A DNA stretch of 62,337 nt, counting the filler. It is 5 parts of 5 records of this genome, joined end to end, with 100 filler letters (N's around TTAATTAATTAA, not from the genome) between each part and the next. Parts side by side here need not be neighbours in the genome. Positions count along the whole stretch, not along the records: positions 44,749 to 51,530 come from DRR723986_10747; 4 more parts are not named here. One strand, written 5' to 3'. The notes below the pieces were generated by a model that had not been told where the DNA came from, ran no database searches, and worked only from the letters and a program-made list of their open reading frames with translations. Made by a program: the position numbers and the translations under genes. Every line of letters begins with the position of its first letter. Position 1 is the stretch's first letter. Positions 44,131-54,526 of the stretch are shown here, piece after piece.

Positions 44131-44648
44131 ATGGGTATGACCCACATTGTTGACCGGCGCCTGAACGGCAAGAACAAGAGCGCAGTGAACCGGGAACGGT
44201 TCCTGCGCCGTTACCGCCACCACATCAAGAAGGCGGTGTCGGATGCCGTGCAGAAGCGCTCCATCACCGATATCGAACGGGGCGAGAAGGTAAGCATTCC
44301 CGCCCGGGATATTGACGAACCCATCTTCCACCATGGCCACGGTGGCCGGCGAGAGGTGGTGCACCCCGGCAATCAGGAGTGGGTGGCCGGGGACACCATC
44401 CCAAAACCCGAGAGCGGCGGTGGCCAGGGCCAGGGGCAAGGCCAGGCCAGCCCGGACGGCGAAGGCATGGATGAGTTCGCCTTCCAGATTACCCAGGAAG
44501 AATTCCTCGACTTCCTGTTCGACGATCTGGAGCTGCCCAATCTGGCCCGGAAAAAACTCAAGGACACCGAAGCCTTCAGTTATGTACGCTCGGGCTTCAC
44601 CACCCAGGGAGTGCCCGCCAAGCTGGATGTGGTGCGTTCCCTTCGGGG
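44131..44648 (+). CDS. yeaH: YeaH/YhbH family protein, 5' fragment
   Basis: [21 protein letters not shown] and [10 protein letters not shown]; directly after prkA. Confidence 0.95.
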
Positions 44649-44748
44649 NNNNNNNNNNNNNNNNNNNNNNNNNNNNNNNNNNNNNNNNNNNNTTAATTAA
44701 TTAANNNNNNNNNNNNNNNNNNNNNNNNNNNNNNNNNNNNNNNNNNNN
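44649..44748. other. Artificial contig linker
   Basis: N44-TTAATTAATTAA-N44. Confidence 0.98.
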
Positions 44749-49001: not shown

Positions 49002-50157
49002 GGGCCGGCATCGGCGGCACGAGGTCACCGCAGACCAACCGTGTGAGGATGGCGGGTGCCGGCCATGTCCGCGACAGTGGCGCCAGCAGGCGATCCCTGA
49101 TCACCGGCAGAACCCGGCTGTCCGATTGATATTGTGGGGTAAAGGACGCGCTAAGCGCCTGATACGCCGCCACATGCCACCGGCGCGCCCCGGCATAGAG
49201 GCGAAGCGCCTCCTCCCCTTCGGCAATTCTCAGGGCGCGCTGCAATGCCTCTGCATCCAGCAGCGCCATGTTGGCCCCTTGCCCCAGTTGCGGGCTGGCC
49301 CTGTGGGCCGCGTCGCCGATATGGGCAATGCCTGCGCCATAGGGGGCCGCAAGCGATCCGTGGGTGTAGCTGGCAAATGTAAAGGCGTCATGGCCGTTGA
49401 TCCATCCAAGGAAGGGGCCGAAATCTGGCCAAAGACGGCTGGCATCGGTCTGCCATTTCTCAAAGGGCGTGGTCTTCCAGTCTTGGAAGGATGAAACAGG
49501 TAGGGAATAGAAGATGGCCGCCAGCTTCTGCCAAGGTTGATCCGGCATCGCACCGACCGGCAATACCCCCAGCATCCGGTCGGCCCTGCGATAGCATTGT
49601 GACAGCCGGTCATACGGCAGCGTGCTGTCTTCGGGCCAGGGAACCGTTGCCCATACCGCGCCGTAGGGCAGGGGACGGCTGGACAGAGGCGAAAGCGGAG
49701 AGCTTGCGCCACAGGCATCAATGATCAGGTCGAACGGGTTTGATCGCTGATCGCCGAAGCAGAGCGATTGCCCCGCGCGCCCCGTAACCTGATGCGACGG
49801 GATAAGCCGCGCCCCTGCCTCGGTTGCCGCGTCATGCAAGAGCGAAAACAGGGCCGCGCGATGAATGCCGAGCCCCTTGCGGTCGTCCTTTTTACCATAG
49901 CTTACAGACAGAACCACGCGGTTGTTGCCAGCTTCATGTCCGAACATCGTGGTGATCGGCGCGCCCAGTTCACGCGCGCCCTTGCCGGCACCGATTCGAT
50001 CCAGCACCGACACGCCGACGGGTTGGATGACAAGGCCGGACCCAACCGGCTGCGGGGCCTCGAACTGATCGAAAACCGAGACGTCATGCCCGTCCCGCGC
50101 CAGCAACGCTGCGGCTGCCAATCCACCGATCCCCGCCCCTGCAATGCCAATTTTCAT
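48976..50157 (-). CDS. FAD-dependent monooxygenase (UbiH/salicylate hydroxylase-like)
   Basis: IGIAGAGIGG and IGDAAH..SPQLGQGANMALLDA; start MKIGI at 50157. Confidence 0.9.
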   Translation of the reverse strand: MKIGIAGAGIGGLAAAALLARDGHDVSVFDQFEAPQPVGSGLVIQPVGVSVLDRIGAGKGARELGAPITTMFGHEAGNNRVVLSVSYGKKDDRKGLGIHRAALFSLLHDAATEAGARLIPSHQVTGRAGQSLCFGDQRSNPFDLIIDACGASSPLSPLSSRPLPYGAVWATVPWPEDSTLPYDRLSQCYRRADRMLGVLPVGAMPDQPWQKLAAIFYSLPVSSFQDWKTTPFEKWQTDASRLWPDFGPFLGWINGHDAFTFASYTHGSLAAPYGAGIAHIGDAAHRASPQLGQGANMALLDAEALQRALRIAEGEEALRLYAGARRWHVAAYQALSASFTPQYQSDSRVLPVIRDRLLAPLSRTWPAPAILTRLVCGDLVPPMPALTPVARGR

Positions 50158-50288
50158 TTTCGTTATCCGATTAGATCTGTCGTTTCTTGCCAGCCACACC
50201 GCGGTGCAACAGTGGGACAATGCTTGACCCAACGGGGAAAGCGACGCAACCTGCCGTTGTTTGAAGCAGTCATTTTCAGGAGAAAGCC

Positions 50289-50597
50289 ATGAGTTGGAGC
50301 AGCTTGTCCGGCGCCAGCAAAGCCGCACTGATCTTTGCAGTGCTCGGGTTCGTCATCAGTTTCACGACACTGTCGACATCGACGATCAATGGGGTGCGAA
50401 CCTGCAACTATATGGATTACGGCGCGCTGATCTTCGGGGCGCTGGCGATGCTTGCGGGGTCTTTGGGTTTGATGCGGGTGCGGGATCTGGCACCTGATGC
50501 ACGGACCCTGAATCTGGTGGTCTGCGTGGCAGCGGATATTGTCGGCGTGGTCCACATCCTGCGCGGCATTGGCATGGTCGGCGGCCCCTGCGGCTGA
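50289..50597 (+). CDS. Small three-TM membrane protein
   Basis: AGGAG RBS, three hydrophobic segments and two loop or terminal Cys (TCNY, GPCG). Confidence 0.7.
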   Translation: MSWSSLSGASKAALIFAVLGFVISFTTLSTSTINGVRTCNYMDYGALIFGALAMLAGSLGLMRVRDLAPDARTLNLVVCVAADIVGVVHILRGIGMVGGPCG

Positions 50598-50633
50598 CCC
50601 ATCCGTCCCGCGCGGCATGGGCCTGCCTCATGA

Positions 50634-51044
50634 TTACCGAAGCTTTGGGATGCCCCCCGGCAGAATGTCCCGGTCCACGACGCCCGCCCGCAGGGAACGC
50701 CCGATCCGGTGCGCTAGTGCTGACCAGCGGGCCGCCTGTGCCGCGCTCAGTTCCTCGGCCAGAACGCTGTCGAACAGCTTCAGCCACGGCTCGAACATGC
50801 CCGGCCGCACATTGCCCGCCTGCATATGCGCCACCATCGGATTGCCGTCATAGCTGCGTTCGCCCAGAATCGCGTTTGCCCAGAACCGGGCGATCTTGGC
50901 CTCGTGCGGGGGCCAGTCCGTGATATGGGCGGCAAAAACCGGCCCAAGCACCGGATGCGCGCGAACACCGGAATAGAACCGGGCGACAACGCGCTCGATC
51001 TCTGGTCGCGTGATGTCGAACTTGGCTAGCGGAGTAGTATTCAT
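50634..51044 (-). CDS. Group III truncated haemoglobin (trHbP)
   Basis: VARFY..VR.HP.LGPVF, W..H..KI..FW, Y.GNPM..H and F..WL.LF. Confidence 0.9.
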   Translation of the reverse strand: MNTTPLAKFDITRPEIERVVARFYSGVRAHPVLGPVFAAHITDWPPHEAKIARFWANAILGERSYDGNPMVAHMQAGNVRPGMFEPWLKLFDSVLAEELSAAQAARWSALAHRIGRSLRAGVVDRDILPGGIPKLR

Positions 51045-51107
51045 GACGACAAGATGGGACCGTCAGGACCGCTTCGCCAGTGGCCATCTGGTCGCGCTAC
51101 CCGCCTC

Positions 51108-51136
51108 TGGACGCCTCCCCGCAGCGGGCCTATAAG
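51108..51136 (+). promoter_or_regulatory. Sigma70 promoter of the ileS leader
   Basis: TGGACG (51108-51113), 17-bp spacer, TATAAG (51131-51136); the expected start site falls at or near ATG 51144. Confidence 0.7.
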
Positions 51137-51143
51137 GCAGATC

Positions 51144-51197
51144 ATGACCCGCCCATTCGTGCGCATCATTATTCGAATTATCGGCCCGGCTCTCTGA
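51144..51197 (+). CDS. Putative Ile-rich leader peptide of ileS (MTRPFVRIIIRIIGPAL)
   Basis: ATC ATT ATT CGA ATT ATC gives 5 Ile in 6 codons, 87 nt before ileS; the stop lies inside hairpin 51185-51214. Confidence 0.8.
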   Translation: MTRPFVRIIIRIIGPAL

Positions 51198-51284
51198 GAC
51201 CAAGAGACGCCGGGACAAGGTGTTTGATTTTTCGCACCGCCCTGATAACCCCATCCCGACCGAATATCACGAGGACGCCGATCC

Positions 51285-51530
51285 ATGTGCGCCGACACGC
51301 CTGAGCAATCGCTCGACTACAAAGACACGCTGAACCTGCCCAAAACCGATTTCCCGATGCGCGCGGGCCTTCCCAAGCGCGAGCCCGAGTGGCTGGACCG
51401 TTGGGAAAAGATGGGGATCTATGATCGCCTGCGCGCAAAAGAGGGCCGCACGCCCTTCACGCTGCATGACGGTCCGCCCTATGCCAACGGGCACCTGCAT
51501 ATCGGCCACGCGCTGAACAAGACGATCAAG
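51285..51530 (+). CDS. ileS: Isoleucine-tRNA ligase, 5' fragment
   Basis: [19 protein letters not shown] and [19 protein letters not shown]. Confidence 0.97.
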
Positions 51531-51630
51531 NNNNNNNNNNNNNNNNNNNNNNNNNNNNNNNNNNNNNNNNNNNNTTAATTAATTAANNNNNNNNNNNNNN
51601 NNNNNNNNNNNNNNNNNNNNNNNNNNNNNN
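51531..51630. other. Artificial contig linker
   Basis: N44-TTAATTAATTAA-N44. Confidence 0.98.
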
Positions 51631-51801
<171 letters not shown>

Positions 51802-51818
51802 TCTGCTGATCTGAGGAT

Positions 51819-51856
51819 AAAAACCCCCGGTGCCAGACTGGCATCGGGGGTTTTTT
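51819..51856. terminator. Bidirectional intrinsic terminator
   Basis: AAAAACCCCCGGTGCCAGACTGGCATCGGGGGTTTTTT between convergent genes. Confidence 0.9.
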
Positions 51857-51918
51857 GTTGGAACCGACAGGACGGGGAGAGGAGCCTCCTGCCGGTTCCG
51901 GCCCGTGAGTTATGGGCA

Positions 51919-52299
51919 TCAGTCTTCGAAGCGCGATTCTTCTGCCAGTTGGGCGAAGATGCGGGCTGCGACATCGTTCTGACCGAAGCTCTGGGTCGAA
52001 ATCACTTCGGTGCCGCCGTTGGTCAGGTAGGCCGCAATGGCGTGCTCGTCATCGTCCTGAGCCTGACGAACGCGGGCGTCAAAGGCGACCGACGCGTCAA
52101 CCGGGCCAGCGCCGCCGTTCAGGATGAACGCCACTTCGGCGTGGTCGTTGTCGGACAGGGCTTGGCTCAGACGGACCAACTCAGAGGTGGAGTAGGTGCC
52201 GGGTTCAACACCCAAAGACGCGGCAAGGCTGTCAGAAGCGAAAGCGGCAGGGGCAGCCAGAACTGCGGTGAGGGCGGTGGCAAGTGCAAGGGTTTTCAT
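51919..52299 (-). CDS. Small secreted acidic protein with internal duplication
   Basis: Signal peptide MKTLALAT...PAAFA, AAAGGA RBS and strongly biased codons. Confidence 0.85.
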   Translation of the reverse strand: MKTLALATALTAVLAAPAAFASDSLAASLGVEPGTYSTSELVRLSQALSDNDHAEVAFILNGGAGPVDASVAFDARVRQAQDDDEHAIAAYLTNGGTEVISTQSFGQNDVAARIFAQLAEESRFED

Positions 52300-52480
52300 T
52301 GTGATATCCTTTCGAGTGTCATGTTCAGTGCGTTTGCGGTTGAAGGCGGTGTGCCTCCGATGACACTCAACTTAGGGCGTCGATTTCGGTGTTTCACCCA
52401 ACGAAACCGAGAAATCAGCGTGAGGTTGGTGCGTGAGTGCACATAAGGATCTGCGAGTCGGCCCAGACCGTCACGCCCGG

Positions 52481-54526
52481 TTACGGGCCCGTGATTTCCA
52501 GAAACACTGTGGCCACCCGACCCCCTGAATCGATCACCGTCAGGTCAACAAAGCCCGATCCGGGGGTGCCCAGATCAACCTCTCGGTCCTGCACCCCGAT
52601 TCCCACCGGGCGGCCGTTCCACAGCCATGTGTAGGGCGGTGTGCCCCGGTCTACCCGCGCCATCAGCGGCAATCCCGGCTGACTGGCCAATACCGCACCA
52701 TCGGGGGGGAAGGCGATTTCGGGCGCGTTGGGGTCGGTCGTGGCGGCGGCACGGCTGGCAAAGCGTTGCAGCGGTGCGGGCAAATCTGAATGGTTGACGG
52801 TCAACGCGCCGTGGGGCGGAGCAGGCAGCGGTGTCAGGCGCGGGGCGATGCGGGCGAAAGCCTCGAACAACAAGGGGGCCGCGACATCGGCCCCGAAAGC
52901 ACCGGGGACCGAGGCCCCGTCAGCACGCCCCAGCCAAACGCCCACCACATGCCGCCCATCATAACCGAAGGCCCAGGCATCGCGGTGGCCGTAGCTGGTG
53001 CCGGTCTTGTAGGCCAACCCGATACGCGGTGCATTGGCGGGGGGGATCATGTCGGACAGGATATCACCCACATACCAGCTGGCCACTGGCGACAGCACTT
53101 GAACCGGTTCGCCGGCGCGGTCGCCCTGCCGGTAGTGCAGCGGCACATAAGCCCCGCCAGAGGCCAGCGCACCATACATGCGCATCAGGTCTTCCATCGT
53201 CACGCCGACACCACCAAGCGCCACCGCCAGCCCCGGCTGACCGGCGGGCAGTTCGGGGTTCATGCCCGCGCGGCGCATCCGGTTCATCAGCTCCGCCGGG
53301 CCCAGTTCTTCCAACAGGGACACGACGGGGATGTTTAGCGAGGCCTGAAGCGCGCGGCGCACGGACAGCTCGCCGCGAAAGACATGGTCGAAATTCTGCG
53401 GCGCGTAGCTGCCGAACCGCGTGGGGCGATCCTCGATCAGGCTTTCGGGGTGGATCAACCCGGCCTCGAATCCCAATCCGTAGATCAGGGGTTTTAGGGT
53501 CGAACCAGGCGAGCGCAGGGCCTGGGTCATGTCCACGAAGCCCTGCAAAGGGTTGTCGGAATATTCGGCGGAGCCGACCGAGGCCAGAACCTCGCCCGTC
53601 TGATGATCCATCACCATGATCGCGGCATTCAGCCGGTCGCCCTGCCCGCGCACAGCCTCTTGCGCCAGTGCCTCCATCTGCGCCTGCAAGGTCGCGTCAA
53701 TGGTCAGGTGGTGCTGGCCCGCCAGATCTTCCACCAGCATCCGATCCGAAAGGTGCGGGGCCAGCAGCGGGAAATCGCGGCGTTCCGTTGGCAGGGGTTC
53801 GGCCATGGCCCATTCGACATCTTCTGCGGTCAGCACGCCAAAGGTCAGGGCCCGGGCCAGAACCCGGTTGCGCGCGGCAAGGGCGTTGTCGGGGTTGCGG
53901 TCGGGGCGGCGGCTGTTGGGGGCTTGCGGGATGGCAACCAGCAGCGCGGCCTCGGCGGTGGTCAGCTGCCCCGGTTCCTGTCCGAACCAGGTGAACGTTG
54001 CGGCGCGGATGCCCTCGATATTGCCGCCATAGGGCGCCAGATGCAGGTAGAGCGTCAGAATCTCGTCTTTGGTCAGCTGACGTTCCAGCGCCAGTGCCAA
54101 ACGGATCTGCCGCAGTTTGCCGCCCCATTCACCGGTGCCGCTATCTTCCAACAGCCGCGCGACCTGCATGGTGATGGTGGACGCCCCCGACACGATCCGC
54201 CCATTGGTAACGGCCTGCCATGCAGCGCGCGTCATGGCGCGCCAGTCTACGCCAGCATGGTCATAGAACCTGCGATCCTCGAAATTCAGCAGCAGCTCGA
54301 TAAACTCCGGGTCCACCTCGGCCAGCGATACCGGCAGTCGCCAGCGCCCATCCTCAACCGTATAGGCGCGCAGCAGCGCGCCATCGCGGTCCAGCACCTC
54401 GACCGAGGTGATCGGCACCAGCGGTGGAATGACGGTCGCGTCGATCCACGCATCAAACCGGGCCCGCGCCAGACCAAGCGCCAGCAGCAGCGCCGCCAGC
54501 CAGAAGAAGACCCTGGCCCTGATCAC
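52481..54526 (-). CDS. pbpC: Penicillin-binding protein 1C
   Basis: Transglycosylase motifs EDRRF..H.G and GASTITMQ; transpeptidase motifs SPGSTLK, SLN and KTGTS; follows the A2M gene. Confidence 0.96.
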   Translation of the reverse strand: MIRARVFFWLAALLLALGLARARFDAWIDATVIPPLVPITSVEVLDRDGALLRAYTVEDGRWRLPVSLAEVDPEFIELLLNFEDRRFYDHAGVDWRAMTRAAWQAVTNGRIVSGASTITMQVARLLEDSGTGEWGGKLRQIRLALALERQLTKDEILTLYLHLAPYGGNIEGIRAATFTWFGQEPGQLTTAEAALLVAIPQAPNSRRPDRNPDNALAARNRVLARALTFGVLTAEDVEWAMAEPLPTERRDFPLLAPHLSDRMLVEDLAGQHHLTIDATLQAQMEALAQEAVRGQGDRLNAAIMVMDHQTGEVLASVGSAEYSDNPLQGFVDMTQALRSPGSTLKPLIYGLGFEAGLIHPESLIEDRPTRFGSYAPQNFDHVFRGELSVRRALQASLNIPVVSLLEELGPAELMNRMRRAGMNPELPAGQPGLAVALGGVGVTMEDLMRMYGALASGGAYVPLHYRQGDRAGEPVQVLSPVASWYVGDILSDMIPPANAPRIGLAYKTGTSYGHRDAWAFGYDGRHVVGVWLGRADGASVPGAFGADVAAPLLFEAFARIAPRLTPLPAPPHGALTVNHSDLPAPLQRFASRAAATTDPNAPEIAFPPDGAVLASQPGLPLMARVDRGTPPYTWLWNGRPVGIGVQDREVDLGTPGSGFVDLTVIDSGGRVATVFLEITGP

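Follow-up and report, generated by a model that had tools for sequence, protein, structure and literature searches.

An isoleucine-codon leader ORF and covarying hairpin upstream of ileS: a probable leader-peptide sensor of charged tRNA-Ile in Alphaproteobacteria

To our knowledge, Alphaproteobacteria have no T-boxes, and how the levels of aminoacyl-tRNA synthetases are matched to demand in these bacteria is largely unknown. The window analyzed here (the whole stretch of DNA under study, 62,337 nucleotides [nt] of joined contigs) raises this question for ileS, the isoleucyl-tRNA synthetase (IleRS) gene, the beginning of which is preceded by a short upstream open reading frame (uORF) rich in Ile codons and by two hairpins, P1 and P2. 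A preliminary description of this DNA had proposed that the uORF is leaderless and acts as a translational attenuator through pairing with the ileS ribosome-binding region. Comparison with related loci leads us to consider the leader as probably a leader-peptide sensor that responds to charged tRNA-Ile and acts in cis on ileS, a judgment that is meant for the sensor and its control in cis and not for the output step; the sensing of Ile-tRNA itself is what we infer from the design of the leader. Reading positions 50800-51500 placed the promoter, uORF, P1, P2, GAGGA, and ATG exactly where the preliminary description had them. These features are as follows, where A1 is the alignment of the Rhodobacterales loci and A2 is the alignment from which the covariance model used below was built.

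51108..51113, plus strand: -35-like hexamer TGGACG, aligned with the CTGGAC/CTTTAC/CTTGTN hexamers in A1
51131..51136, plus strand: -10 hexamer TATAAG within CTATAAG, the latter at least 90% conserved in A1
51144..51197, plus strand: very probably leaderless leader ORF, MTRPFVRIIIRIIGPAL followed by a TGA stop, its frame conserved across loci
51165..51182, plus strand: Ile-codon run ATC ATT ATT CGA ATT ATC, with 5 Ile in 6 codons
51174..51180, plus strand: near-invariant core CGAATTA (Arg CGA, Ile AUU, A), every column of which is either invariant or conserved to 90% or more in A1 and A2
51185..51214, plus strand: covarying hairpin P1 (CCCGGCTCTC / GAGACGCCGGG), which begins 4 nt after CGAATTA
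51219..51238, plus strand: hairpin P2 (GGTG...CACC), specific to Rhodobacterales
51239..51270, plus strand: variable C-rich, G-poor spacer, by base composition a candidate Rho utilization (rut) site
51271..51275, plus strand: ileS Shine-Dalgarno sequence (SD) GAGGA (consensus, AAGGAC)
51285..51530, plus strand: ileS, first 82 codons only (Pfam tRNA-synt_1)

The leader was compared across a Rhodobacterales-type set of 80 loci, all from Rhodobacteraceae/Paracoccaceae, which were obtained by scanning species-representative genomes with the 82-residue IleRS fragment of the window. A short ORF with the consensus ..A-I-I-I-R-I-(I/T)-x-P-A-L-stop, also written ..AIIIRII[SCT]PAL plus stop across the set, occurred ~100 nt upstream of ileS in the great majority of these loci; no obvious uORF was seen in L012, L074, and L079, and the Ile run was degenerate in about eight loci. 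The ORF is 16 to 17 codons long, and the 17-codon uORF of the window reads ATG ACC CGC CCA TTC GTG CGC ATC ATT ATT CGA ATT ATC GGC CCG GCT CTC TGA. When an upstream in-frame ATG and a stop no more than 45 nt downstream were sought over 106 motif-bearing loci, the CGA-ATT frame was open in 102, whereas the remaining two frames scored 3 and 6. Among 77 Rhodobacterales uORFs, the number of Ile codons per uORF was most often five (25 uORFs), followed by four (21), three (11), two (9), six (7), one (2), and seven (2), with 4 to 6 Ile codons in 53 of the 77. A conserved Ile-codon run and open frame among Rhodobacterales relatives, on which the preliminary description had staked its reading, were thus both borne out.

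The codons used in the uORFs were distinct from those of the gene that follows. Ile was encoded by ATT 171 times, ATC 97 times, and ATA 50 times in the 77 uORFs, in contrast to ATC 1,695, ATT 218, and ATA 15 in the portions of ileS that follow them, so that ATT and ATA made up 70% of the Ile codons in the former versus 12% in the latter. Similarly, CGA accounted for 77 of 129 Arg codons in the uORFs (60%) versus 61 of 2,822 in ileS (2%). The base following AUU was A in all copies although the encoded residue varied (I, T, S, M, N, or R); CGAAUUA is conserved at the nucleotide level. Overall, the comparison supports the uORF as a real and conserved Ile-codon leader that would directly control ileS. 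A programmed frameshift from the uORF into ileS was considered and rejected: the phases of the uORFs relative to ileS were distributed 36/42/28, and only 10 and 4 of the 106 shifted frames were open and in phase with ileS.

The position of the transcript 5' end bears on how ribosomes would enter this ORF. In the window, TGGACG is followed by 17 nt, TATAAG, 7 nt, and the ATG at 51144, and the same arrangement of a -35-like hexamer, 17 nt, CTATAAG, 6 to 8 nt, and ATG was at least 90% conserved in A1. Of 79 Rhodobacterales-type loci, 75 had a -10-like hexamer 5 to 9 nt (mode, 6 to 7) 5' of the in-frame ATG, and it occurred at the same distance in 18 of 27 loci from the class at large. In Methylorubrum extorquens, the available text of a differential RNA sequencing (dRNA-seq) study gives an ileS promoter TAGAAG followed by 7 nt and an A as start site, 150 nt upstream of ileS (PMC9320726), a geometry that matches the distance from the -10 hexamer to the ATG in the window. 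RNA sequencing contigs from two studies of related organisms start at 51152-51198, none spans 50966-51141, and one identical contig runs from 51154 to 51339 and joins the leader to ileS; since contigs cannot prove a transcription start, these provide a weak hint only. The promoter geometry shared by the relatives agrees with the leaderless nature of the uORF claimed in the preliminary description; the ileS uORF is very probably leaderless, with transcription predicted to start at or next to A51144.

The second conserved component of the leader is P1. RNAalifold on A1 returned P1 as the sole helix, with 10 pairs, 5 of them compensatory. P1 and P2 together had 91.1% of cells paired and 11 pairs with compensatory double changes, a pairing level reached by 0 of 500 shuffles, whereas slid controls reached 38 to 50%; P1 by itself (helix 1) was paired in 96.2%. 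The third pair of P2 (185-208) was CG in 41, UA in 29, and UG in 5 sequences, and P2 was missing from the Paracoccus loci L024, L037, and L040. The uORF stop codon (51195-51197) is located at the top of P1, and the Pro codon CCG inside P1 is invariant. The spacing from CGAATTA to P1 was exactly 4 nt in 71 of the 106 loci, the differing values of the remaining loci being due to extra flanking pairs taken by the helix-picking heuristic. Folding of the whole window leader was unexceptional (z, -1.46; 19 of 200 shuffles folded equally well). A scan of 49500-52500 with Rfam 15 at E values up to 10 returned six weak matches and no T-box or other leader family; the sole match inside the leader was a chance snoZ168 hit on the minus strand (E, 3.3). 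Mimicry of an anticodon loop by the P1 loop, as in thrS, was also rejected: the base after UGA varies, and the stop of relatives may also be TAA or TAG.

To describe the distribution of the module outside Rhodobacterales, a class-wide sample of 201 genomes was searched, of which 172 had an IleRS match, and 80 upstream regions were examined. CGAATTA, 4 nt, a CCCGG...CCGGG hairpin, and a short ORF in the CGA-ATT frame were found together in 28 of these 80 regions, and a looser pattern was found in 30. The peptide outside Rhodobacterales ends with R-I-(I/T/S/M/N/R)-x-P-(A/V)-x-stop and usually has just one or two Ile codons. The plain pattern CGAATTANNNNCCCG matched in 107 of the 201 genomes, its reversed control also matched often, and most of the 20 non-ileS places examined fell within long coding ORFs. 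As a chance look-alike of the motif, the pattern CGAATTACCTGCCCG recurred within a conserved coding gene (L163, L166, L168, and L169), the translation of which (..LRSPEANYLPGPDDIYVSP..) looks like that of the transcription terminator Rho. Given the lack of specificity of the plain pattern, a covariance model of CGAATTA plus P1 (R1) was built from A2 and used instead, with a cutoff E of 0.01 or lower. R1 gave a single match in the window (62.1 bits; E, 2e-12) and 47 matches in 39 of 151 genomes of the class, 25 of them linked to ileS (one before ribF-ileS) and 22 located elsewhere.

The genes following the module in 19 non-ileS regions were then assigned as follows, with three regions (L191, L198, and L201) having no assignable downstream gene.

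Downstream of the module in 13 of 19 regions (L183-L202): ~100-residue protein with the motif CFSV.A.ADPGVMPRVLELFAKRGLVP
Downstream of the module in 2 of 19 regions: AAA_33 P-loop proteins (L185:201-740, plus strand; L192:819-1310, minus strand)
Downstream of the module in 1 of 19 regions: HMGL-like/IPMS gene (leuA- or cimA-like)

Of the 13 members of the ~100-residue protein family, 4 matched Pfam ACT_AHAS_ss weakly (best E, 0.0089). The protein also matched small subunits of acetohydroxy acid synthase (AHAS) in PDB at E values of 0.19 and 0.99, and its neighbors in the Atlas were "ACT-like domain" clusters with PF26954 ACT_12 (score, 0.95). In L141, the gene for the small protein is inserted after the leader and ahead of ileS, and its stop codon overlaps the ileS start codon. 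A 321-residue PALP enzyme in genome G059 is preceded by two tandem copies of the module ~200 nt apart (L161/L182, G059:C1:885600-888900, minus strand), for which the best NCBIfam models were threonine ammonia-lyases (E, 1e-101, below the full-length cutoff), and a further copy precedes an ACT_12-like small protein (L181:2015-2383, minus strand). Tandem copies were also present in G061 (L191); the second of such copies is not at the transcript start and would therefore need a ribosome-binding site of its own. The ACT_12-like protein may bind isoleucine as a regulatory subunit, such as that of a short threonine dehydratase that has no ACT domain. Since the targets are ileS and Ile-related genes, the module appears to respond to isoleucine, and its presence before varied genes points to a self-contained element, which fits the absence of gene-specific pairing. 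Separately, the CGAATTA unit was duplicated in the ACT_12 leader of L183 (G134:C59; ..G-R-I-I-G-R-I-S-N-P-V-L), which suggests that the sensor codon pair may be multiplied by local duplication.

In the mechanism proposed here, a ribosome starting at the 5' end would meet rare Ile codons and linger when Ile-tRNA is scarce. The decisive codon would be AUU, decoded through a G:U wobble in the A site, with the inosine-read and poorly decoded CGA in the P site, and, to judge from ribosome footprint geometry, the base of P1 would then sit at the mRNA entrance of the ribosome. Long occupancy of the leader would raise ileS expression. Because a stall at the three Ile codons upstream of CGA would spare P1 in Rhodobacterales, the output there would depend on occupancy and not on the melting of P1. 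As far as the comparison reaches, the output step is one without an RNA switch, no conserved terminator, antiterminator, or anti-SD pairing having been found. Our tentative choice for it is that Rho terminates transcription prematurely within the C-rich, untranslated part of the leader and that stalled ribosomes would relieve this by masking the 5' half; this route would resemble that of tna, with a bipartite rut site split by the hairpins. Close behind, as a slightly less probable output, comes protection against decay, in which the ribosome would shield the 5' end and an RNase E-type site (GA↓AUU).

The base composition of the leaders is of interest for the Rho route. From the end of P1 to the SD, the Rhodobacterales-type ileS leaders had a C/G ratio of 1.76, with C exceeding G in 74 of 75, and the corresponding values for the class-wide ileS leaders were 1.43 and 24 of 26; the ratio far upstream was 0.94. 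In the first 40 nt past P1, C exceeded G in 72 of 76 and 18 of 22 ileS leaders, respectively. Extending the proposal to the class, we regard it as possible, rather than probable, that Alphaproteobacteria share a self-contained, switchless sensor in which a leaderless mini-ORF carries CGA-AUU(-A) 4 nt before a stop-bearing GC hairpin and the dwell time of the ribosome sets the access of Rho or RNase E. Such a sensor would serve an isoleucine regulon of ileS, threonine dehydratase, a leuA/cimA-like synthase, and the ACT_12 protein, and would be sensitized in Rhodobacterales by added rare Ile codons.

Two other explanations rely on RNA switches. In the translational attenuator of the preliminary description, the ileS SD is sequestered by codons of the uORF until a stalled ribosome releases it; the window does contain all three pairs of complementary segments as well as the alternative ATCGGC/GCCGAT pairing, part of the segments belong to its minimum-free-energy fold, and the leaderless poly-Cys ORFs of mycobacteria supply an experimental precedent in the available text of bioRxiv 10.1101/834739. 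As a means of control, however, this pairing was neither conserved nor above shuffled expectation. The mean unpaired probability of the SD-AUG region over 78 loci was nearly flat (0.47 for the free leader, 0.49 when a ribosome was masked at AUU, and 0.48 when it was masked at the stop), accessibility under the masked ribosome rising by more than 0.05 in 22 loci, falling in 9, and remaining unchanged in 47. The best duplexes of the uORF with the sequence that extends from the end of P1 to the start of ileS, for which dinucleotide-shuffled versions of that sequence served as control, had a mean z of +0.38 across the 78 loci, with 3 of 78 under -1.64, and that of the window (-15.2 kcal/mol versus a shuffle mean of -17.0) was equaled by 67 of 100 shuffles. 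Moreover, the spacer that would hold the partner segments is unalignable between relatives, and the module serves unrelated downstream genes, which pairing specific to one gene would not permit. The comparison largely refutes this explanation, and we rate it as highly improbable. Even less credit can be given to a classical transcription attenuator with an intrinsic terminator. The window does contain a terminator-like site at 51205-51225, made from the P1 3' arm and the P2 5' arm (AGACGCC/GGTGTTT) and followed by GATTTTTC, and to that extent the earlier remark that no hairpin is followed by a U-tract does not stand; its substance stands in that no terminator is conserved, as such sites, that of the window included, were confined to 4 of 79 and 2 of 27 leaders. 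The underlying helix between the P1 3' arm and the P2 5' arm (2:3) was without covariation and was rejected (formable in 78.0% of cells versus 78.4% in shuffles, with 388 of 500 shuffles as high), and the T run corresponds to the loop of P2, which covaries. Concealment of a rut site in the downstream C-rich tract by the P1 3' arm was likewise rejected, with a duplex z of +0.26 over 93 leaders, in which freeing the P1 3' arm was predicted to leave the pairing of the region past P1 unchanged (unpaired, 0.517 versus 0.529).

Stabilization of the mRNA and a role other than sensing call for different weighing. In the former, which as a full explanation we hold to be rather unlikely, GA↓AUUA would be an RNase E entry site covered by the ribosome at AUU and by the initiating 70S ribosome on the 5' AUG, and the ileS transcript would be longer-lived when Ile-tRNA is scarce. 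Stalled ribosomes stabilize ermC-type mRNAs. This explanation would account for the invariance of CGAATTA at the nucleotide level in all module copies, including the A with its varying codon, and for the AU-rich rare codons of the Rhodobacterales run; it agrees with the null pairing tests in requiring no RNA switch, and, with P1 left intact by stalls at the upstream Ile codons, covering of the RNA fits better than melting of P1. RNase E sites are AU-enriched in R. sphaeroides and the Escherichia coli enzyme prefers A/U at +1 and U at +2, according to the available text of PMC6238624, and GA↓AUU fits such preferences directly before a stem-loop in an otherwise GC-rich RNA. Against this, cleavage at CGAAUUA is predicted from sequence, and the role of P1 and the exact 4-nt spacing are only loosely explained. 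A 7-mer would also match the loose RN↓WUU rule by chance about 1 time in 20. It is improbable, in our view, that the element does not sense Ile-tRNA at all and that CGAAUUA with its hairpin binds a protein (IleRS itself, in a parallel to the autoregulation of thrS, a factor of the Lrp type acting on DNA, or some other regulator that binds RNA) or encodes an R-I-x-x-P arrest peptide, the Ile run being secondary. The same invariance of CGAATTA, the invariant CCG codon in P1, and the one or two Ile codons of most class-wide copies would suit such a role, but the frame-specific ATG and stop, the abundance of Ile codons in the Rhodobacterales uORFs, and the Ile-pathway nature of the targets speak against it. 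In addition, the ATTCGAAT palindrome shows no class-wide conservation of its left half, and the residues after Pro follow the covarying stem and are therefore not constrained as a peptide, which counts against the arrest peptide.

Several observations weigh against the leader as a sensor of charged tRNA-Ile acting through ribosome occupancy. The conservation of CGAAUUA at the nucleotide level is as compatible with a site for a protein or a nuclease as with an effect of codon context, and outside Rhodobacterales the small number of Ile codons means that sensing would rest on a single AUU. No conserved structural change linking stalling to ileS could be named from the predicted folds. A pause-like Y-G 11 nt past P1 was conserved at 0.79 in Rhodobacterales versus 0.09 class-wide and was rejected. 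The ACT_12 leaders lacked the C>G skew, with C exceeding G in 6 of 11 (C/G, 1.09), which weakens a general Rho mechanism. A strict sigma-70 consensus scan of the window leader reported no promoter, because TATAAG ends in G, and the start site in this organism is predicted from promoter geometry. The element as a whole is a proposal from sequence comparison.

Ribosome-mediated attenuation by leader peptides such as trpL, ilvL, ivbL, leuL, and pheM is known for amino acid operons and pheST. These systems are summarized in the available part of bioRxiv 10.1101/834739. The ileS leader is similar to the trp, ilv, and pheST attenuators in having a short ORF rich in cognate codons directly before the cognate metabolism or synthetase gene and a hairpin overlapping the end of the ORF, and it shares the use of rare codons with leuL. 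Unlike them, it has a very probably leaderless uORF, no conserved intrinsic terminator, no supported antiterminator, and, outside Rhodobacterales, just one control codon that is invariant, set within the constant sequence CGA-AUU-A. Rho-dependent control by leader peptides is represented by tnaC-tnaA and mgtL/corL, which respond to free tryptophan at the stop codon or to Mg2+/proline. As in these systems, a C-rich tract that is not translated and has no intrinsic terminator comes after the leader peptide, so that Rho could be impeded by a stalled ribosome; in contrast to them, a hungry sense codon would provide the signal in the ileS leader, there is no evident alternative structure, and the role of Rho is putative. 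In the mycobacterial leaderless poly-Cys ORFs (Ms5788A type), the codon tract pairs with the downstream SD, as demonstrated by compensatory mutants in the available part of bioRxiv 10.1101/834739. The ileS leader resembles that type, as there described, in its very probably leaderless, putatively sensory ORF, its tract of cognate codons, its lack of a terminator, and, as proposed, its occupancy-dependent output, and differs from it in that pairing of the uORF with the SD is neither conserved nor above chance. Translational T-boxes control ileS in Actinobacteria (PMC1262725, available text), and those of Firmicutes and Actinobacteria would share with the ileS leader the sensing of tRNA-Ile charging, whereas the latter has no T-box match or tRNA-binding architecture and would sense through translation.

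Traces of the leader in the literature were few. The available text of PMC4117421 mentions a Caulobacter crescentus "ileS leader CDS" (CCNA_03934) that was supported by ribosome profiling (Ribo-seq) and used as a negative control, and this is probably the same element. Apart from it and the Methylorubrum start site, no study of this leader or of alphaproteobacterial ileS control was found in the literature text available to us. With no terminator and no RNA switch, and with a fixed codon pair plus hairpin that occurs across Alphaproteobacteria, the leader would be a new form of leader-peptide control. Intrinsic terminators are scarce in GC-rich bacteria, and leader-peptide control without the textbook terminator/antiterminator switch would bear on how attenuation works in such organisms. 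The ileS leader module would also supply a mutable element, a candidate isoleucine regulon, and an ACT_12 protein tied to isoleucine.

The layout of the surrounding DNA reflects the assembly of the window from concatenated contigs, with N-run joints around TTAATTAATTAA at 51531-51631 and about 44640-44700. Because separate contigs are joined, ileS is broken off at 51530 with 82 codons left. For this 82-residue fragment, NF040702 (ileS with GNAT domain), which also denotes an isoleucine--tRNA ligase, ranked best among NCBIfam models and TIGR00392 (ileS) ranked second (E, 1e-17); TIGR00392 was the top family for 581 residues of the orthologue in L007 (E, 2.7e-143). The ileS start ATG is at 51285, and A1 ends with AAGGAC followed by ATG TGC GCC GAC in the relatives. 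A divergent gene on the minus strand upstream (50634-51044) was assigned by Pfam to a bacterial-like globin. Beyond the joint, a different contig contributes the 3' end of a thiolase gene (51632-51801), followed at 51807-51922 by a strong bidirectional terminator-like hairpin (aaaaacccccggtgccagactggcatcgggggtttttt). This hairpin overlaps two sub-threshold Rfam matches, namely, ar14 on the minus strand (25.5 bits versus a gathering score of 58.8; E, 0.049) and a weak match to NsiR1.

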